Below are positions 3,364 through 42,226 of a stretch of DNA of 64,000 nt, piece after piece; the first letter of the stretch is position 1; each line of letters starts with the position of its first letter. The notes under the pieces are model-generated. The model worked only from the letters and a program-made list of their open reading frames with translations. It was not told where the DNA came from and ran no database searches. Source of the stretch: a bacterium (GTDB lineage Bacteria; T1Sed10-126). The stretch is taken from NCBI GenBank assembly GCA_003554945.1, contig PWHN01000050.1, positions 19,272 through 83,271 of the forward strand, in the 5' to 3' direction. The position numbers were made by a program, and so were the translations under genes.

Positions 3364-3921
3364 TTATTCACCCAGAGCTTCCTCGCCACCAACGGTCTTA
3401 CCGACCTTCTGGCGAATATGTTCGTCTTCGTATTTTATACCTTTTTGGTTATATGGATCGGGGTCACGCAGATAGCGTAGTTGAGCGGCAAACTGGCCGA
3501 CTTTCTGCTTATCTATACCGGTAACCTTAATTGTCGTCCGGTTAGGTATTTCAACCTCGATATGATCGGGAATATCCACTTGAACAGGGTTTGAAAATCC
3601 AAGTTCCATGTGAATTAAGTCGCCGCGCAACTGTGCCCGGTAACCAAGCCCGTTAAGGACCAATGTTTTGGCAAACTTTTTCGTTACCCCGTCAATCATA
3701 TTGTTGATAAGCGACCACATTAAGCCATGGTAACTTTTTTGTTGTTTAGAGTCATCTCTCCGCTTAACCTGCACGGTGTCAGAATTAACATCCAGAGTAA
3801 TACCCGGAGAAATCTGCTGACTGAGTTCACCTTCCGGGCCAGAGACGATAACCTCGCCGTTATTAACCTTAACTTCAACGTCATCCGGCAGATCTATAGG
3901 ACGTTTTCCTAATCTTGACAT
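3364..3921 (-). CDS. rplF: 50S ribosomal protein L6
   Basis: 185 aa; order in the spc operon. Confidence 0.9.
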   Translation of the reverse strand: MSRLGKRPIDLPDDVEVKVNNGEVIVSGPEGELSQQISPGITLDVNSDTVQVKRRDDSKQQKSYHGLMWSLINNMIDGVTKKFAKTLVLNGLGYRAQLRGDLIHMELGFSNPVQVDIPDHIEVEIPNRTTIKVTGIDKQKVGQFAAQLRYLRDPDPYNQKGIKYEDEHIRQKVGKTVGGEEALGE

Positions 3922-3924
3922 CGG

Positions 3925-4323
3925 TCACCACACCTCACAGAGAAATTCGCCGCCAACGTTTTCAGCCCGGGCTTCGCGACCGGTCAAAACTCCCTTAGGA
4001 GTCGTAAGCAGAGCAATACCAAGACCGCTTTTGACCAACGGTATCTCCTCTACTCCGACGTAACGACGCCGGCCCGGTTTACTAACTCGTTTCAATCCCT
4101 GAATTACAGACTCGTCATTAGGTCCGTATTTCAGATGTAACCGCAGCGTGCCCTGACGCGGGTTACGTATATTTTTATAGTCAATTATAAACCCCTCGTC
4201 CAAGAGTTTTTTCGCAATACCACGCTTTAAACTTGACGAAGGAATGTCAACCACGTCCTGTTTACGAACAAGAGCATTATTTACACGGGTCAACATATCA
4301 GCAACTGGATCTGTAACATTCAC
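3925..4323 (-). CDS. rpsH: 30S ribosomal protein S8
   Basis: 132 aa; order in the spc operon. Confidence 0.9.
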   Translation of the reverse strand: MNVTDPVADMLTRVNNALVRKQDVVDIPSSSLKRGIAKKLLDEGFIIDYKNIRNPRQGTLRLHLKYGPNDESVIQGLKRVSKPGRRRYVGVEEIPLVKSGLGIALLTTPKGVLTGREARAENVGGEFLCEVW

Positions 4324-4392
4324 AACTTAATCCTCCTAATATTAATATTCTCCAGCCCCACCGATGTATCCGGAGCGGAGATAATTATATAA

Positions 4393-4587
4393 TTACCAGC
4401 TAGACTTACGAACGCCTGGAATCTGTCCTCTGTGAGCAAGCTTACGGAAACAGAGGCGGCAGAGCCCAAAGTCTCTCATGTAAGCACCGGTGCGACCACA
4501 TCGGTTGCAGCGGTTAAAATCACGCACTTTAAACTTACGCTCTTTTTTATGTTTTTCCAATTGAGCTTTTCGTGCCAATATAATCAC
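4393..4587 (-). CDS. rpsN: 30S ribosomal protein S14, type Z (zinc-binding)
   Basis: 61-64 aa with a CxxC...CxxC motif ([22 protein letters not shown]) and the C-terminal [10 protein letters not shown]. Confidence 0.85.
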
Positions 4588-4593
4588 CTTTCT

Positions 4594-4726
4594 GTAACTA
4601 CTCCTCTATCCCCTCTCCCCTGGAGGGAAAGGGCCAGGGTGAGGGGGAAAAAGGTCTTGAAAACCGTTTTTCACCCCCCTTTGCGTTTCCCCCCTTCAAG
4701 GGGGGAAAGATAAGGTGAGTAGTTAC
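4594..4726. repeat. 133-nt palindromic repeat element inside the spc operon, in the rplE-rpsN spacer
   Basis: Flanked by perfect 10-bp terminal inverted repeats, GTAACTACTC and GAGTAGTTAC. It contains the R1 core TCCCCTCTCCCCTGGAGGGAAAGGGCCAGGGTGAGGGGGA (4609-4648) and the R2 hairpin CCCCCCTTCAAGGGGGG (4672-4715). Both cores recur elsewhere in the window. Confidence 0.6.
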
Positions 4727-4755
4727 ACCTTTCTTAAGTAGAGAACGTATAACTT

Positions 4756-5307
4756 TTACGCGAACGGAAACCCGTATTCCTCCAGAAGTGCTTTGGCCTC
4801 TTCAGTATCTTCCGTACTGGTCACTATGGTAATATCCATTCCAAAGACAGTCCCGATCTCCTCATAAGATATTTCAGGGAAGACCCCCTGCTCGTTGAGA
4901 CCAAACGAGTAGTTACCACGCCCATCAAAACTACCGGGGTTAAGACCACGAAAATCTTTGGTGCGGGGTAATACGAGGTGGACTATCTTGCGTAAAAAAT
5001 CGATCATTTTGCGTTCACGTAGAGTAACCTTATATCCCATCGGGTCACCCTGGCGAACTCCGAAATTAGCAACCGATTTACGGGCCCGCGTAATCTGGGG
5101 GCGCTGACCGGTTATAAGTGTCAGGGTTTCCTCGATTTCATCCATTTTATTGACATTTTCACTAGCATCACCAACGCCCACATTAACAACAATTTTTTCA
5201 AGGCGCGGGACTGCATTAATATTATCAAGCTCGAGACGATCGAGTAATTTTTTTCGGCGTTCAATTAGCAATTCCTTTTTTTCAACATTAACCTGTGAAG
5301 CTGTCAT
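4756..5307 (-). CDS. rplE: 50S ribosomal protein L5
   Basis: 183 aa; operon position. Confidence 0.9.
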   Translation of the reverse strand: MTASQVNVEKKELLIERRKKLLDRLELDNINAVPRLEKIVVNVGVGDASENVNKMDEIEETLTLITGQRPQITRARKSVANFGVRQGDPMGYKVTLRERKMIDFLRKIVHLVLPRTKDFRGLNPGSFDGRGNYSFGLNEQGVFPEISYEEIGTVFGMDITIVTSTEDTEEAKALLEEYGFPFA

Positions 5308-6970: not shown

Positions 6971-7599
6971 TACAATTCTTCTCCTTTAAAGACCCAGGCT
7001 TTCACGCCAATAATTCCAAATTTAGTATCAGCTTCAGCAAAGGCGTAGTCAATCTTTGCACGAAGTGTATGTAGTGGAATTCGACCTTCGCGATACCACT
7101 CCCGCCGCGCAATATCGGCACCGTTCAAACGGCCCGAAACCTGAACTTTTATCCCCCGGGCACCTTTTCGCATAGCATTCTGAATGGCTTCTTTCATTGC
7201 CCGGCGGTGATGGACGCGGCTCTCAAGTTTTCGAGCAATTTCTTGAGCAACCAGATGTGCGTCTGTTTCAGGGTCTGCTACTTCCTCAATATTTATTTCT
7301 AAATCCTTGTCACCAATTTTTTTCAACAGATCCTTACGAAGCTGTTTAATGTTAGAGCCACCACGACCGATAATAATGCCGGTCCGGGCGGCCGAGAGAT
7401 CAATTCTAATCTTATCGGCAAACCGTTTAATAATAATGTCGCTTATCAGAGCGTGAGGATACTGGCGGCGAATTTCCTCGCGCAGTTCAATATCTTCAGC
7501 CAGCTTCTCTGCCCTCTCCGGTCCCTCAGCGAACCACTTGTCTTCCCAATCGGAGGTTACCCCCAACCGGAAACCTTTAGGATGAACCTGTTGACCCAC
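6970..7599 (-). CDS. rpsC: 30S ribosomal protein S3
   Basis: [14 protein letters not shown]-terminus with a KH-domain pattern. Confidence 0.92.
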
Positions 7600-11235: not shown

Positions 11236-11294
11236 AAAAAAGAGATAAAAATCCAAATATTTCCTCCCCCGTGTCGGGGGAGGAAATATTTGGT
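11236..11294 (-). terminator. intrinsic terminator downstream of tuf
   Basis: A perfect 18-bp stem, CCAAATATTTCCTCCCCC / GGGGGAGGAAATATTTGG, with loop GTGTC. On the minus-strand transcript it is followed by a U-rich tract (UUGGAUUUUUAUCUCUUUUUU). Confidence 0.8.
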
Positions 11295-11309
11295 TTTATT
11301 TTTCCGTAA

Positions 11310-15592: not shown

Positions 15593-18500
15593 TTAGGCCG
15601 AGGACGCCTCATCCTCAGCGGCCTCTTCAGCTTCGCTGGCCGCCTGGCGTGTATAAGACCGGGCCTTGTCCACGACTTCGCGCAGGTCTTTCTTGAACAT
15701 GTCGCGATAAGTGTAATAGCCGGTTCCGGCCGGAATTAAGTGACCGGTAATAACATTTTCTTTCAACCCTTTAAGCTCGTCAACCTGACCGCGGGCAGCA
15801 GCGTCGGACAACACTCGCTTAGTATCCTGGAAGCTGGCCGACGAAATGAAGCTGTCGGTTCCGAGAGAAGCTTTTGTTATTCCCTGTAGAACAGGTGTAA
15901 AAGAGGCCGGCTCGCCACCATCTTCGGCTATTGTCTGGTTTATGCGCGAAAGACGATAACGATCGACCAGCTCGCCGGGCAGATACTGCGTGTCACCGGA
16001 AGAGGTAATCATTACGCGACGCACCATCTGACGAACTATAAGTTCAATGTGCTTGTCATTTATAGCTACGCCCTGCTGACAATAAACCGTCTGAATTTCC
16101 CGGACAAGATAATTTTGAAGCGCACGGACCCCTTTGATCCTGAGCAGGTCGTGAGGATTTATATAGCCCTCAGTCAGAGGCGTGCCCTCCTCAATAGTCT
16201 CTCCGTCCCGGACCCGAACGTGAACGCCGGGTTTGATTCTATAAGATTTTGAATCCTCAGTTTCAGGATTGGTTATCTGAACAGTCCGAATACCTTTTTC
16301 CTCACGTTTTTCGGGTTTAATAAATTCGACCACGCCCGAAATTTCAGCTATATCAGCGCTCTGCTTAGTTCGCTTACGGGCCTCAAACAGGTCTTCCACC
16401 CGGGGCAAACCACCGGTGATGTCTTTCGTTTCAGCGGCTTCTTTAGGCATTTTGGCCAGAACCTGACCGGACTGAACTTCCTCGCCGTCTTCGACGACAA
16501 GAATGGCATCATAGGGAAGATCGTAACGGCGGGTTGCCTTCTTTCCTTTACGTTTCAGGACAATGCTGGGGAACATTTTCCCCTGTTTGTCCTCGACGAT
16601 TACATTGTTAATAAGTCCGGTAGTTTCATCAACTTCCTCCGACAACGTCCGGCCAACTTCAACGTCACGTAGATTTACTTCCCCGTCAAACTCAGCAATA
16701 ATCAATTCGTTATAGGGGTCAATCTCAACATATCGTTCGCCAGACCGCACAACATCGCCAGGGTCAACCAGCACTTGCGAACCAATGTCAAGACTGATCG
16801 CATAATCCGAACCAAGCACCCTTAAGGCATCTTCCTGGAGCATAACCACACCTTCGGAGCTGGCACAGACTTCTTGTTCGCCGTCTTCACCGTGATAAAC
16901 AGCAATCTGGTCGCCTTCATAGACCCAGAGTCCTTCAAAAACAACCGGTTCAATCTCGCCTTCTTCAGGTTCAAGAGAAATTTCCTGCTGGATCTTGCGA
17001 ACTCTCATCTCCGATTCCGCCAGCGCCACCAGCTCCTCTTCACCGTCAGCACGTGTATACTCGACGGCATTCTCCGGAACAGATTCAACAAATATGTCAT
17101 TCTCAGCTTCCACAGCATGTTCCCCACCACCGGCGGCCGTCCCTCCGGTGTGGAAGGTTCTCATGGTTAGCTGGGTTCCCGGTTCGCCAATTGATTCGGC
17201 GGCAATTATTCCAACCGGCTCGCCAATATCAACCATTTTCCGTGTCGACAGGTCACGCCCGTAACAACGAGCACAGACACCATCTTCGGATTCACAGGTG
17301 AGTAAACTTCTGATCTTGATTGAATCGAACCCGCAATCTTCTATTCTGCGGGCCTGTGGCTCCTCGATCATCTCATCCTCAGCGACAATCAGCTCACCCG
17401 TTTGGGGATGTTTTATGTCTTCGCGAGCAATTCGCCCGAGAATTCTATCATACAGATTCTCAAGGATTTCATCACTGGAGCGGATCGGGCCGATTTCAAC
17501 TCCTTGCAGAGTTTCACAATCTTCCTCAACAATCCGACAACTCTGTGCGACGTCAGCAAGCCGGCGAGTCAGGTAGCCGGCATCAGCCGTCTTCAGAGCA
17601 GTGTCAGCCAAACCTTTTCTGGCACCGTGAGTTGAGATGAAGTATTCCATCACAGAAAGCCCCTCACGAAAGCTTGACTTAATCGGAAGCTCAATAATCT
17701 TACCACTGGGTTTTGCCATGAGCCCGCGCATGCCGGCAAGCTGCCTGAGCTGTTCCTCGGAGCCCCGAGCTCCAGAATTTGCCATCATGTAAACGGGATT
17801 GAGACCGTCCTGGTCGTCGCTCATCTCTTCTAATAACGCATCACTAACATCTTGAGTGATTTGGTGCCAAACGTTAATAACCCGGTTGTATTTTTCTTCT
17901 GCAACCAGCTCCCCGGCTTCATACTGATCATTAATCTCCTCAACCTGCTTGTCGCCCTGTTCGATCAACCTTTTCTTTTCAGGTATCTCAAACATGTCCT
18001 GGTAACCAATCGAACAGCCCATTAAAGTCGACTCGTGGTAACCCACCTCTTTAAAGTCGTCCAGCATATGAACTGCTCTGTAGGTTCCTTCCTCCTCGAC
18101 AACTTCAGCAACAAGATCGGCAAGTCTCCCCTCATTAAATTCATAGTTACGATACCCGAAACTGTCGGGTAGAATTTCGTTAAAAAAGACACGACCCGGA
18201 GTCGTAACATATTTTTCTCCGTAAATTCGGTAAATAATCGGGGTGTGTAGACCAACCCGCCCCTCTTCATAGGCCCATTTTACCTGGCTGGATTGAGAAA
18301 ACTTGTGTTCTAGTTCTTGAAGTTCATCCAGATCTACATCGTAAGGTTCACGGGTCAGGTAGTTCAGCCCGATAACCATGTCCTGAGTTGGAACACTAAC
18401 AGCTCCACCGTGGGCCGGCGAGAGCAAATTATTGGTGCTGAGCATCAGAACGCGAGCCTCAATTTGAGCCGTTTTGGAAAGTGGCACGTGAACAGCCATC

Positions 18501-19987: not shown

Positions 19988-20012
19988 GGTAAAACACCTC
20001 TAAATTAGATTA

Positions 20013-23000
20013 TTATTCAGTGACCATTTCATCGATATTAAGCTCGCGATCTTTTTCGTCAAAGACACGAATGTCCAGCCCCAGACCCTGCATTTCCTTC
20101 AACAGAACGTTAAAGGACTCGGGCACCCCGGGGACGAAACTCTCTTCGCCTTTGACAATAGACGCGTATGTTCGTGAACGCCCACTCACATCGTCACTTT
20201 TTACCGTAAGAAATTCGCGTAACGTATGAGCAGCTCCATATGCTTCAAGCGCCCAAACTTCCATTTCCCCTAATCGCTGACCGCCAAACTGAGCTTTACC
20301 ACCAAGCGGTTGCTGCGTAACCAGGGAGTATGGTCCAATAGAGCGGGCGTGCACTTTGTCTTCGGCAAGATGTTCAAGTTTCATAATATGCATGTTGCCG
20401 ATTGTAACTTTTTGATCAAAATAATCGCCTGTGCGACCGTCGCGAAGGGGAACTTTGCCATCGCGTGGGTAGCCTGCTTCTTCAAGAATATCAGCGATAT
20501 CTTCGTCAGTTGGGCCTTCAAATACGGGCGCGATTACCCTGTACCCAAGTTCCTCCAGGGCCAGTGTCAGGTGAGTTTCAAGGACCTGGCCAAGGTTCAT
20601 CCGACTGGGAACACCGAGTGGATTAAGCACTACATCCACCGGCTCACCCGCTTCAGTAAACGGCATGTCTTCTTTGGGGAGAATTTTAGATATTACCCCT
20701 TTGTTACCGTGCCGACCGGCTAATTTGTCACCAACACCAATTTTACGCTTGTCAGCGACATAAACCTTAACTTTCTTCTCAACTCCCGCTTCTAAATCGT
20801 CGTTGTTCTCACGACTGAACTCTTTAACATCCACAACTACACCTTTTGTTCCGTGTGGCACCGTTAAAGAGGTGTCCTTAACATCTTTGGCTTTTTCGCC
20901 AAAAATAGAATGGAGAAGCTTATACTCAGGCGAGAGATCTACATGACTCTTTGGCGTTACCTTACCAACCAGCAAATCACCGGGTTCAACATAACTTCCA
21001 ATTTTTATTATCCCTTCGTCGTCAAGATCACGCAGGGCCTGCTTGCTCTGGCTGGGAATATCGCGGGTAATTTCTTCTTTACCCACTTTAGTCTCACGCG
21101 CAGCTATTTCAAGTTCTTCGATATGAATCGAAGTGAATACATCCTCAGTAACCAGCCGTTCAGAGACAAGAATAGCGTCCTCAAAGTTATAACCTTCCCA
21201 GGGCATGAAAGCAACTTTAACGTCGCGACCAAGGGCAAGTTCGCCCTGGCTTGTTGCCGGGCCGTCTGCCAGAACCGAACCGGCCTCAACCTTATCTCCA
21301 ATGTCAACTATGGGAGTCTGATTAAAGCACATCCCCTGATTCGAACGTTTATATTTCATCAAGGGATAAATATCTATCCGGTTTTCACCGGCCTCAGCAA
21401 TTATCTCTCCTGTTTGTTTATCAATCTGGTCTTCCTCTAACTCTTCATCAACTTCAACCCAGATCCGGCGTGAGTCACACTTTACAACCTCACCGTCGCG
21501 CTGCGCCACAACAACAGATCCACTGTCACGAGCAGCTTTTCCTTCTACTCCAGTAGCAACCATAGATCGCTTCGTATTGACCAACGGAACCGCTTGACGC
21601 TGCATGTTTGAACCCATCAGCGCCCGATTGGCGTCATCATTTTCGAGAAATGGAATGCAGGAGGTAGAGATACTGACAATCTGCCGCGGCGATACGTCAA
21701 TATAATCAATTTCGCCACGGTGAACAAGTTCAAACTCATCGGCGCTCCTGGCTCTAATTAGCTCTTTAGTAAACTCACCTTTATCATTAGTTTCAGTTCC
21801 AGCAGCGGCTATATTCGCCTGGTCCTCCTCATCAGCGTCCAGAAAGACTATCTCATCTGTAACCTTACCATCTTTCACAACCCGGTACGGGGTTTCAAGA
21901 AAACCCAGATCATTGACGCGGGCAAAAGTGGCCAGACTAACAATCAATCCAATATTCGGTCCCTCAGGAGTTTCAATAGGACATATGCGGCCATAATGTG
22001 TGTGGTGGACGTCACGGACATCAAACCCGGCTCTTTCCCGGGAAAGACCGCCCGGACCAAGCGCCGACAGACGACGCTTATGAGTGAGCTCGTCAAGCGG
22101 GTTTGTCTGATCCATAAACTGGCTCAGTGAGCCAGTTCCAAAAAACTCCTGCAAATCCGCAGTGAGCGGCTTGATGTTAATCAAGCGGGCCGGGGTTGGC
22201 CGCTCATCGTCTTGAACGTGCATATTGAGTTTGTCTTCAATACTGCGTTCAACGCGGCTTAAACCAGTTTTAGTCTGTTGATAAAGAAGCTCACCTATGG
22301 TCCTCACGCGTCGGTTTGAAAGGTGATCAATGTCGTCAATCTCACCGTCACCGTCAGCTATCTTTATGAAATACTCAAAAATAGCAAGTATATCCTCGGG
22401 GGAAAGGGTTCGTTCCTGGAGGTCTTCCTCCTCTAATCCTTTATGCCCCAGCTTTTTGTTTATTTTGAAGCGTCCCACCCGTTCAAGATCAATTCGATCT
22501 TCATCAAAAAAAGCTCCATAAATATATTCACGGGCGTTTTCAACGCTGTATGGGTCATTAGGCCGAAGTAACTTAAACAATCGTTTGAAGGCCTCGTCCG
22601 GCTCGGTTGTCGGGTCTTTGGCCAGAGTATTTAAGATGACCGGATTGATCTGATCTTCGCGATCTACAATCTTAATCTCATCGTAACCCAGATCCTGCAT
22701 ATCTCGAACAACTTTTTTGTCAATTCGCTGTCCTGCAGGATGGACAATATTATACTGAGGACCGGTTTCCTCTTCCTCTTCTTCAGCCTCCCCCTCTTCT
22801 TCGGCTTCATCTTCCTCGACTGTTTCCGTCTCCACAACTTCTTCCAGTATAGGTTCGGCAAGATACTCAAAAATTAACGAGTCACCGCCATCAACCGAAA
22901 CAACTTTTGTGTCGTAAAAATGTTCAACTATGTCTTCGTTCGTCGGCATTATGTAATCCGACTCGGGATCCTCGGGATCTTCAGGGAGAATACGCAGGAA

Positions 23001-27378: not shown

Positions 27379-27455
27379 ACAGCGATGTTATATTCTATCT
27401 TACCAGGACGTCAAATTCAAATAGAACTTTCCTACCAGGAAAATAATAATTAGTG

Positions 27456-27535
27456 CCTCTCCGAAAAGTCCCCTCTCCCCTGGAGGGAGAGGGCTAGGGT
27501 GAGGGGGAGGAGATGTTTAACCCTTTTCGGAGAGG
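27456..27535. repeat. 80-nt palindromic repeat element, second copy of the R1 core
   Basis: 13-bp perfect inverted repeats CCTCTCCGAAAAG and CTTTTCGGAGAGG flank TCCCCTCTCCCCTGGAGGGAGAGGGCTAGGGTGAGGGGGA, the same core as at 4609-4648. Confidence 0.6.
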
Positions 27536-27541
27536 GTTTGA

Positions 27542-28828
27542 TTAGAGGAAGGAGCGACGACGATTTAACTTCACAAACAGACCTACCATTACCCAGTTGA
27601 CTATGAGAAAGCTTCCGCCGTAACTAACAAAAGGCAGCGGCAAACCACTAATCGGGGTTAAGCCAATTGCCATACCGATCCCAATTATCAGATGAGCTAT
27701 CCAGACGATACCGATTCCAGAGAAAAAATAAAATATCCACCACTCATCAGCAAGCGCGGCGGCTGAAAATACTCCGTAAATTACCAGTAAGTAACACAGG
27801 ACTATAAATATCGCAAACAGTGCCCCAAATTCCTCCACGCCAACAGAAAAAATAAAATCTGTCCACAGCTCCGGGATAAAACCAAGCTGACTCTGGGTCC
27901 CGCTCATATATCCCTGCCCAAACCAGCCGCCCGACCCTATTGCTATCTGTGACTGAATTAAACTGTATCCTCCTTCTCGTGAGACAGCAAAAGGATTGAA
28001 AAATGATTCCAACCTTTCACGTTGATAGGGAGCCAGCGACGGGATGAGCATCGTTCCTATGATTATCCCCGTGAGCAGCAAACAGATGTAGCCTGCAAAG
28101 TTAACGTTGCGTCGCTTAAAATAGGGAATCACAACCGTAACCAGTAATAAGACGCCCAGGGTGAACCAGAATACAAGTCCAATTTGTGCAGGCAGCTCTA
28201 CAACAGCCTGCACAATACGCTCTGTATTTCCCTCAAACGGCGCCAAAACCAGAGATCCTCCAATCGCTCCACCAGTTCCTAAGACTACCAGCGCTATCCC
28301 TTCCTGCCACCAGCCACTAATAAAAAACCAGCCACAGACTATAGCCAGAAAAACAAGCACCGTCCCCAGGTTTGGCTGCAGGAAAATCAAAACCACAGGC
28401 ACTGCCGCCACCGCCAGAATATAGAATATCCCCCGGAAACGGCTAAGCTGTTGTGCTTCTATCTTTTCAGATATACCGGCCAGAGTTAAGAGCAAAAATA
28501 GTTTCATCACCTCGGAAGTCTGCAGGTTGAAACGCCACAGACTAAGCCAGCGCTGTCCCCCCCGGGCATCGACTCCGAAAAACAGCGTAAGTACAAGCAG
28601 AGCAACTCCAAAAAAATACAATAACCACCTGTAGCGATAAAATCCCGATGCGACCGTCCAATTAATAACAAGAGCAAGGCTAAGACCGGTCAAAAACCAG
28701 GACGCCTGCTTAAACGCCAACTCAAATCCAAAAACTCTATGGCTGGCACTATAAATTAACGCTATTCCCACCAGGGAGAGAACTATCGCAATAGAAAAGA
28801 CAATAACATTAGAAGCACGCCGTCTCAC
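27542..28828 (-). CDS. rodA: SEDS-family peptidoglycan glycosyltransferase (RodA/FtsW)
   Basis: A 428-aa polytopic protein with the C-terminal GLPLPFVSYGGS motif, located downstream of mrdA. Confidence 0.85.
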   Translation of the reverse strand: MRRRASNVIVFSIAIVLSLVGIALIYSASHRVFGFELAFKQASWFLTGLSLALVINWTVASGFYRYRWLLYFFGVALLVLTLFFGVDARGGQRWLSLWRFNLQTSEVMKLFLLLTLAGISEKIEAQQLSRFRGIFYILAVAAVPVVLIFLQPNLGTVLVFLAIVCGWFFISGWWQEGIALVVLGTGGAIGGSLVLAPFEGNTERIVQAVVELPAQIGLVFWFTLGVLLLVTVVIPYFKRRNVNFAGYICLLLTGIIIGTMLIPSLAPYQRERLESFFNPFAVSREGGYSLIQSQIAIGSGGWFGQGYMSGTQSQLGFIPELWTDFIFSVGVEEFGALFAIFIVLCYLLVIYGVFSAAALADEWWIFYFFSGIGIVWIAHLIIGIGMAIGLTPISGLPLPFVSYGGSFLIVNWVMVGLFVKLNRRRSFL

Positions 28829-41624: not shown

Positions 41625-41975
41625 ATGATTGAAGTCAGGCTTTACCGCCACCCGCAACATGGATTGACCGGGATGGAAGCTGTCGGGCACGCAGGCGAAG
41701 AACCACGTGGATCTAATCTGCTCTGCGCTGCCTTTTCCACACTGTTCGAGGTTCTTGTCGCCGGGGCAAATAATTTGCCTGCGGAAAGCGTTGACTACGT
41801 TCGAGACGAGCAAAAAAACCACTGGAAACTAGTCGCTGAGCCGGATTTGATCCCCTCAACTGACTGGGGAGCGTTCAGACACACTTTGAAATCGACTGCA
41901 TCCGTCGCCGGACAGATCGTTGATTCTAACCCCGACCGGTGCCAGTTAACCCAGCTTACTCATAAAACAAATTAA
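41625..41975 (+). CDS. prp: ribosomal-processing cysteine protease Prp homologue (DUF464/YsxB)
   Basis: 116 aa sitting between rplU and rpmA. It has the Prp His and Cys motifs, AVGHAG and NLLCAAFSTL (compare Staphylococcus aureus GHADHG...DIVCAGASAV). Confidence 0.75.
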   Translation: MIEVRLYRHPQHGLTGMEAVGHAGEEPRGSNLLCAAFSTLFEVLVAGANNLPAESVDYVRDEQKNHWKLVAEPDLIPSTDWGAFRHTLKSTASVAGQIVDSNPDRCQLTQLTHKTN

Positions 41976-42008
41976 AAACAGAATCTTCCCCCGGTTTTGT
42001 CATTGTAT

Positions 42009-42057
42009 CCCCCCCCTTTGTCTTTCCCCCCTTGAAGGGGGGAAAAAGAAAGGGGGG
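42009..42057. repeat. R2 G/C-run long hairpin, second copy
   Basis: C8-TTTGTCTTT-C6-TTGAA-G6-AAAAAGAAA-G6 folds as a ~21-bp imperfect stem. It is related to 4672-4715 (C6TTTGCGTTTC6-TTCAA-G6AAAGATAAGG). Confidence 0.55.
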
Positions 42058-42226
42058 ATGACGCTGCAAGATTCTGATTAAAAATCGCTGGTAATTCTTG
42101 TACAAACAACTTATAATATTGTTGAGTCATCTGAAAAAATTCCTTCTGCATTGAAGGAGAGAGTAATTTTTTTGGAGTGGACTCATTATTGTTTCTGAAG
42201 ATTACTGAATTTCAGGAGGTAAACCA

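Follow-up and report, generated by a model that had tools for sequence, protein, structure and literature searches.

Among the small repeats of bacteria, Correia elements duplicate TA, and RNase processing or promoter creation has been documented for some families of the Correia, ERIC and RUP type, while repetitive extragenic palindromic (REP) sequences lack a target-site duplication, the feature by which they are recognised being a hairpin with 5' GTAG. A further repeat, BoxC, was reportedly described in the 1990s and taken up later by Hoyne et al. in 2000 and by Hoyne and Maher in 2002. NEMIS, ERIC, BoxC and RUP are treated in PMC2267715. Under its present name TMECO (earlier BoxC and PIT), the BoxC motif follows the pattern CCCTCNCCC-N3-6-GGGNGAGGG-N3-GGGNGAGGG, in which a single mismatch in the stem is tolerated (Holder et al. 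2015, PMC4666352); E. coli K-12 has 23 copies of it, often as inverted pairs, and other bacteria have thousands, and its promoter or terminator activity, its link to any class of genes and its route of mobility were all reported as not known (PMC4666352). In the same report TMECO showed no association with mobile elements, phages or plasmids, and its sites were linked to local variability (PMC4666352). In the current study we describe a BoxC-bearing element of 133 nucleotides (nt) at positions 4594–4726 of a 64,000-nt stretch of contig PWHN01000050.1 (assembly GCA_003554945.1, GTDB lineage T1Sed10-126), hereafter the window, where it separates the ribosomal-protein genes rplE and rpsN. The element had been remarked upon in an earlier note made from the sequence of the window, whose observations stood, in that all the features it named are present, while its functional reading for the most part did not.

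We consider it probable (about 0.8) that the 4594–4726 element is a miniature inverted-repeat transposable element (MITE), a non-coding sequence that depends for its movement on a DDE transposase acting in trans and has BoxC as its cargo. The features that define a MITE are found together here, namely inverted termini, 8-bp target-site duplications, many intergenic copies, an empty site and breaks in assemblies. The element, a complete copy of what we term family 1 to which no strand is assigned, begins on the plus strand with GTAACTACTC (4594–4603), the terminus found in all family-1 copies, and ends with GAGTAGTTAC (4717–4726, plus strand), which is a perfect 10-bp inverted match to it; the earlier note had correctly recognised these boundaries, and inward from the 4594–4603 repeat imperfect complementarity runs on to approximately 35 nt. 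The element has zero coding capacity and a rod-like predicted fold with paired termini, amounting to −77.3 kcal/mol (z −4.8) as RNA and to z-scores of −4.3 to −4.65 for Watson-Crick folding of the single-stranded DNA. Absent from the earlier note is a perfect direct repeat of 8 bp that immediately adjoins each of the inverted repeats, reading ACCTTTCT on the plus strand at 4586–4593 and again at 4727–4734. On the transcribed strand the order is AGAAAGGT, GTAACTACTC ... GAGTAGTTAC, AGAAAGGT, with the junctions ...cttaAGAAAGGT / GTAACTACTC ... GAGTAGTTAC / AGAAAGGTgattatattg.

An empty site is available in L202 (GCA_964566495.1), the closest relative found by ribosomal protein L5 (81% identical), in which the position reads aaaagttataagattAGAAAGGTGATTATAGTG with a single AGAAAGGTGATTATAGTG and the element is absent. 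The next relatives by the same protein, L204 (72%) and L207 (69%), beyond which identity falls to about 55–60%, are likewise without the element at rplE-rpsN, so that the comparison with related genomes proposed in the earlier note finds it absent from this site in all three. The flanking 8-bp repeats together with the single 8-mer of the empty site constitute the staggered-cut signature of a DDE-type transposase. The suggestion that these are interspersed elements of the REP/MITE type is thereby borne out by the terminal repeats, the 8-bp duplication, the empty site and at least 14 siblings, and the same sibling copies make the cores multi-copy sequences rather than chance GC-rich similarity.

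Fifteen distinct complete family-1 elements of 75–183 nt were found, together with two truncated copies; one of the fifteen is the window copy, two are from L204 and twelve are from metagenome contigs, the sources of which were Ga0207421 and the soda-lake sediment sample SL_8KL_010_SED, the latter also containing the window sequence. When the metagenome contigs were scanned with a pattern describing either end of the element, 16 stretches matched, two of them by chance, and further copies were then found in those loci, the copies being spread over at least 12 different contigs. Termini of the GTAACTACTC/GAGTAGTTAC type are common to all (15/15) with no more than two mismatches, and the flanking 8-mers match at all eight positions in five copies, at seven in six and at five or six in the remaining four, the duplicated sequence being different in every copy (n = 15). 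All fifteen complete and both truncated copies are intergenic, no long open reading frame (ORF) overlaps any of them, and the neighbours of the siblings are unrelated (ribE/ribD, infB, an NAD-glutamate dehydrogenase, an aminotransferase with truD, pyrF, a hypB-like gene and an F420 ligase). The copy at 4587–4718 of L212 is identical to the window copy at 127 of 133 positions and yet occupies another site with a different duplication, which indicates recent transposition.

The relative L204 carries one family-1 MITE of 154 nt in its rpsM-rpsK spacer (17261–17414, flanked by ACCAATTT and ATCAATTT) and another of 183 nt in its rplQ-truA spacer (20007–20189, with perfect flanking CTGAAATG), both with BoxC-like arms of the GAGAGAG type, one of these arms being broken by a small hairpin. 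The shortest copies (75 nt; L214 and L215a) consist of a terminus, BoxC and a terminus, and longer ones gain a variable middle. Since copies in which the BoxC arms are lost or truncated (L209, L210, L213, L219b and L224) retain both termini and duplications, BoxC is not needed for transposition. Two contigs of SRR490134 stop inside the 4594–4726 element from opposite sides, as is expected of a multi-copy dispersed repeat. Short-read contig edges within the element were seen at 7518–7547 of L001 and at 1–120 of L227. A small hairpin of the form (A/C)CGTTTTACG(T/G) within a BoxC arm was also observed at 20120–20150 of L204, 10340–10365 of L211 and 7225–7250 of L219, and these three copies, from two genomes, mark a subfamily.

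The 133-nt element is built of two inverted halves, each of which consists of a terminus followed by a C-arm, a loop, a G-arm, a loop and a second G-arm. Half 1 reads inward from its terminus as CCCTCTCCC-CTGGA-GGGAAAGGG-CCA-GGGTGAGGG, which is the BoxC/PIT/TMECO motif (4611–4645, plus strand; the published pattern with one stem mismatch), and continues with GGAAAAA. Half 2, inward from the opposite terminus, reads CCCCCC-TTGAA-GGGGGG-AAACGCAAA-GGGGGG (4674–4705, minus strand) followed by TGAAAAA; this second module has the same arm layout as BoxC and recurs at 42011–42045 of the window as well as in L212, L213, L216 and L219. A central hairpin, GGGGGAAAAAGG ... CCGTTTTTCACCCCC (4643–4680, plus strand), joins the two halves according to the folds and the alignment of copies, the latter showing this section to be variable or absent in the shorter family-1 copies. 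The recurrence of both modules noticed earlier was confirmed, with 38/40 identity between 4609–4648 and 27469–27508 for the first (shuffles of the window gave 0 matches) and 86% identity between 4671–4713 and 42008–42050 for the second.

With regard to size, terminal repeats and a duplication of fixed length, family 1 resembles the Correia/NEMIS elements of Neisseria, the enterobacterial ERIC/IRU and the pneumococcal RUP/BOX elements, with which it also shares intergenic co-transcribed sites, a rod-like fold and a large number of copies, whereas its termini and the length of its duplication differ from theirs. A match for both lies among the insertion sequences (IS) of the IS66 family, the terminal repeats of which start with GTAA (described as GTAAGCG) and the duplications of which are 8 bp (PMC11946415). 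ISDge4 of Deinococcus geothermalis, a member of the ISBst12 group of this family, has the termini GTGACTACTCAGCA and GTAACTGCTCAGCA and an 8-bp direct repeat (PMC12898284). On plasmid pHTA426 of Geobacillus kaustophilus, an IS whose transposase scores 218 bits on Pfam DDE_Tnp_IS66 has ends that we read directly as GTATCTATTCAGCCC and GTAACTATTCAGCCC, with the duplication GACGAGTT; the MITE terminus GTAACTATTCACCT, or GTAACTA(C/T)TCACCT, is identical to the pHTA426 terminus at 12 of 14 positions. The MITE thus has the GTAACTA(C/T)TCA terminus start and the 8-bp duplication of ISBst12-group elements, from which it differs in its size (75–183 nt), its lack of a transposase and its unrelated interior. 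Judging from the termini and the duplication length, the mobiliser would be a single-ORF IS66-family transposase of the ISBst12 group. A literature search on the terminus GTAACTACTC gave nothing relevant, and a comparison of the whole MITE with the phage collection gave zero matches.

The insertion lies between rplE, encoding L5 (4756–5307, minus strand), and rpsN, encoding a zinc-type S14 protein of 61 aa (4393–4578, minus strand). The likely start of rpsN is TTG 4578, which sits 5 nt after GGTGAT, because the relatives share GGTGAT-N5-(T/G)TG; both the Shine-Dalgarno (SD) sequence and the context of the start codon are conserved in L202, L204 and L207. The duplication copy at 4586–4593 is part of the working rpsN SD, AGAAAGGTGAT, and in the transcript the copy at 4727–4734 precedes the element as a decoy SD. 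On the simplest reading, the element landed in the SD region of rpsN, the target duplication rebuilt AGAAAGGTGAT immediately after the element, and the predicted self-folding rod keeps the insert out of the way; a rebuilt SD and self-folding can explain why an insertion in a ribosomal-protein operon was tolerated. The mean predicted probability of being unpaired across the rpsN SD was 0.48 when the element was included and 0.40 for a reconstructed empty site. In L219 a second family-1 MITE (3426–3528) lies in an SD, upstream of a gene for a GTPase of the CobW/HypB/UreG type, with the gene-proximal duplication copy AAAAGGAG located 8 nt before the ATG and the distal copy decayed to AAAAAGAG. 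An SD insertion can be harmless when the target duplication rebuilds the SD, and the window rpsN and the L219 locus provide two cases of this.

The rplE-rpsN spacer had been given as 168 nt, a value that holds to the first in-frame GTG but becomes 177 nt to the start that is conserved in relatives. The accompanying premise that such a spacer is normally of a few nt fails in this lineage, because the element-free relatives (n = 3) have spacers of about 79–100 nt (79–88 nt in L204 and L207); in the window, 36 nt remain once the element and one duplication copy are subtracted. The simple reading of the long spacer is that it is a transposon scar. Scans for terminators and promoters at the three repeat loci of the window placed none on the elements themselves (4594–4726, 27456–27535 and 41979–42076), while a search of the whole window against Rfam at gathering thresholds returned two tRNAs only, and a permissive search of 4500–4800 yielded only hairpin look-alikes far below threshold. 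Taken with its absence in relatives, the predicted structure suggests that the insertion is selfish and roughly neutral and not a regulator of the ribosomal operon.

As to the first module, its sequence identifies it as the published BoxC/PIT/TMECO motif, the strict pattern being present at 27471–27505 and the pattern with the single mismatch GGGAAAGGG at 4611–4645. By blastn, positions 4605–4652 of the window gave 87% identity over 46/48 nt and matched in 5356 of 5426 E. coli genomes, at a median of 11 places per genome. The core was also found in 467 plasmid records, in 85 stretches of viral contigs (IMG/VR; L003–L087) and, with the first loop fixed to TGGA, in more than 114 stretches of genome representatives, the hosts including Binatia, Nitrospirales, Thermodesulfovibrionales, Dehalococcoidia, Planctomycetaceae, Entotheonella, several proteobacterial classes, Atribacteria and a metagenome-assembled genome of Streptomyces. 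The viral and plasmid matches sit uneasily beside the 2015 statement on phages and plasmids. A search of the viral contigs with the pattern of the second module gave 0 matches. Outside the lineage the flanks of BoxC are unrelated, and the association of BoxC with the GTAAC terminus is lineage-specific, because a GTAAC-like terminus stands upstream at only 1 of 224 sites in other lineages; termini of this type were likewise not seen at the one E. coli BoxC pair inspected (hrpB-mrcB). An inverted variant of the CCCTCCCC type often occurs approximately 10 nt upstream of BoxC in Binatia, Thermodesulfovibrionales and Dehalococcoidia (L089–L166). Within one genome, conserved BoxC flanks extend far past the core, which places BoxC inside longer lineage-specific repeats, and at 4215–4364 of L109 tandem units of about 115 nt each were observed. 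Like BoxC of E. coli, the window motif is intergenic, multi-copy and paired with an inverted module of the same layout; unlike it, the window motif is enclosed by GTAAC... terminal repeats and 8-bp duplications, and its inverted partner is the C6/G6 variant instead of a second BoxC.

The earlier note had raised the possibility of a cis-regulatory RNA or DNA element, co-opted by ribosomal-protein operons for processing, stability, attenuation or a switch between a hairpin and a G-quadruplex (G4), which we now regard as improbable. Its appeal is that a highly structured sequence (of the folding energy and z-score given above) is co-transcribed within an essential operon, that the three window elements and both of those in L204 are located in or beside ribosomal-protein spacers, and that the plus strand carries a canonical G3N3G3N3G3N3G5, the same motif having been described in E. 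coli in vitro as a ‘G-quadruplex-hairpin-duplex switch’ (HPG1/HPG2; Kaplan et al. 2016, PMC5100583). The window, however, contains many ribosomal-protein genes, and this skews the sites at which copies are observed; the link to ribosomal-protein operons is not supported, as siblings adjoin unrelated genes and BoxC occurs in many phyla, plasmids and viral contigs, and in the E. coli papers neither promoter nor terminator activity is reported for the motif, nor an association with any class of genes (PMC4666352). Nor did the proposed role in processing, stability or attenuation find support, as the spacer has neither a terminator-like site nor an Rfam family, the element is missing from the site in the closest relative and in two others, and the accessibility of the SD in silico is alike with and without it. 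An intrinsic terminator was rejected on finding zero terminator-like sites in 4300–5000. The note was right that transcription of rplE-rpsN uses the G-rich strand as its template, and for that reason the mRNA, which has the C-rich complement, is without the G4 motif. The claim that the G-tracts are conserved while the loops vary relied on two substitutions in 40 nt, and the chance that two random substitutions both miss the 14 G-tract positions is (26/40)(25/39) = 0.42; a hairpin pair is moreover lost through one of these substitutions (GGGAAAGGG versus GGGAGAGGG). Conservation of the quadruplex is not supported by the family itself, four G3 tracts being kept in only 4 of 15 copies, and a conserved functional G4 was rejected on this count and on the motif not being in the mRNA. 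The hairpin/G4 switch, an idea published for this motif in 2016, is thus unsupported here, and for the E. coli motif circular dichroism and nuclear magnetic resonance favoured an intrastrand triplex over G4 (Holder et al. 2015, PMC4666352). The GAGAGAG arms of the L204 copies leave a single GGG run, and in L204a the arms CTCTCTCCC, GGGAGAGAG and GAGAGAGTGG retain the hairpin and the mirror symmetry with one such run; going by sequence, a hairpin/triplex layout accounts for this one case better than G4 does.

Mobility of another kind would be implied by a REP/REPIN-type element moved by RAYT, an IS200/IS605-like Y1 transposase that recognises single-stranded DNA hairpins. BoxC has traditionally been grouped with the REP/BIME repeats in E. 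coli (PMC2267715). The element is short, GC-rich, palindromic and intergenic, with two inverted halves as in a REPIN and with modules that resemble those of REP, BIME and REPIN repeats, which often form inverted doublets, and its terminus GAGTAGTTAC includes GTAG. Set against these likenesses are the termini, which match the ends of the DDE-type IS66 family, the placing of GTAG at the outer tip, where it does not lead into a hairpin, and the 8-bp flanking repeats at 15/15 copies, which match at five to eight positions and in 11 copies at seven or more; Y1 transposition is not known to leave a target duplication. We consider an origin of this kind most improbable, and it was rejected on the 8-bp duplication and on the outer GTAG without a hairpin. 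It could also be argued that BoxC itself is the selected unit, acting as a triplex or other non-B DNA that drives local recombination or instability or binding a host factor, with the termini incidental and with carriers re-acquiring BoxC because it is useful. In favour of this, the 35-nt core changes hardly at all from one phylum to another while its flanks are unrelated, the module occurs in at least two families of this lineage with different termini, three arms have changed together in L204a with hairpin and mirror symmetry kept, and TMECO sites have been linked to local variability (Holder et al., PMC4666352). This, too, appears improbable to us: many copies without intact BoxC arms keep their termini and duplications, the three-way covariation is from one lineage only, and both a triplex and the binding of a host factor are putative here.

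The reading of the element as a MITE mobilised by an IS66-type transposase has its own difficulties. An autonomous partner was not found by tblastn with the pHTA426 IS66-family transposase in the window and about 186 kb of lineage loci, nor did these sequences contain a long element with termini of the GTAACTACTC type; the assignment to a transposase family is drawn from the termini and the duplication length only, as the search covered the window and those loci. The Ga0207421 contigs may come from the genome that contains the window, for which the support is indirect, their GC content being similar and one locus being shared with the source sample, and the apparent neutrality of the insertion is deduced from structure prediction and from its absence in relatives.

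The BoxC motif was already known, its G4/hairpin switch and its triplex having been published in 2015–2016, and what is new is a MITE with IS66-type ends that carries BoxC. A BoxC-bearing unit with unambiguous signatures of transposition is of wider interest, the movement and the conservation of BoxC having been questions since the 1990s, and this checkable case bears on both. It is conceivable, if on balance doubtful, that BoxC is a portable structural cassette captured repeatedly by small transposons and caught here as MITE cargo, complete with duplications and an empty site; if so, hitch-hiking on MITEs, plasmids and phages could account for near-identical BoxC sequences across phyla. A possible reason for such capture would be insulation of the insertion by a GC-rich rod that folds on itself, so that landings in operons become tolerable. 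For the annotation of this locus a regulatory story is replaced by a transposon scar, and annotators should mask the repeat and not call an RNA element or a G4 switch.

The two other repeat elements of the window differ from family 1 in their ends. The element at 27456–27535 (no strand assigned), between the rodA stop codon and tRNA-Thr, places 13-bp inverted repeats around an exact BoxC (27471–27505); these flanks, CCTCTCCGAAAAG (27456–27468) and CTTTTCGGAGAGG (27523–27535), are as the earlier note described them. Neither GTAAC termini nor a clear target-site duplication was found for it within 27447–27544, and a longer sibling in L224 (5288–5443) has the same termini together with a C-rich/G-rich hairpin. 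The element at 41979–42076 (likewise unstranded), between prp and rpmA, is a 98-nt palindrome (fold z −5.5) with the termini CAGAATCTT and AAGATTCTG and the core C8-TTTGTCTTT-C6-TTGAA-G6-AAAAAGAAA-G6. A perfect 8-bp repeat, ATTAAAAA, flanks it at 41971–41978 and 42077–42084, the left copy overlapping the prp stop codon. It probably represents another MITE family; no sibling with its termini was found in the window and the lineage loci. Contig L226 ends at the prp stop codon, beside this element, and repeats break assemblies. Palindromes of the related C6/G6 kind are present in L213, L216 and L219. Several small repeat families, which differ in their ends but have GC-rich modules in common, are thus found in this genome.

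At 3420–3540 of L213, 7070–7200 of L216 and 12620–12790 of L219 the palindrome takes the form C6-N9-C6-N5-G6-N9-G6 within a larger repeat, which has at least 50 nt of common flank on each side and no long ORF. Elsewhere in the window, the tuf-rpsJ spacer contains a near-perfect palindrome of 30 nt (11242–11304; 87% complementary, with a 3-nt loop), and a tandem 27-nt duplication (2354–2407; 96% identical) lies inside the ORF at 2279–2962, which is rpsE with an acidic N-terminal extension.

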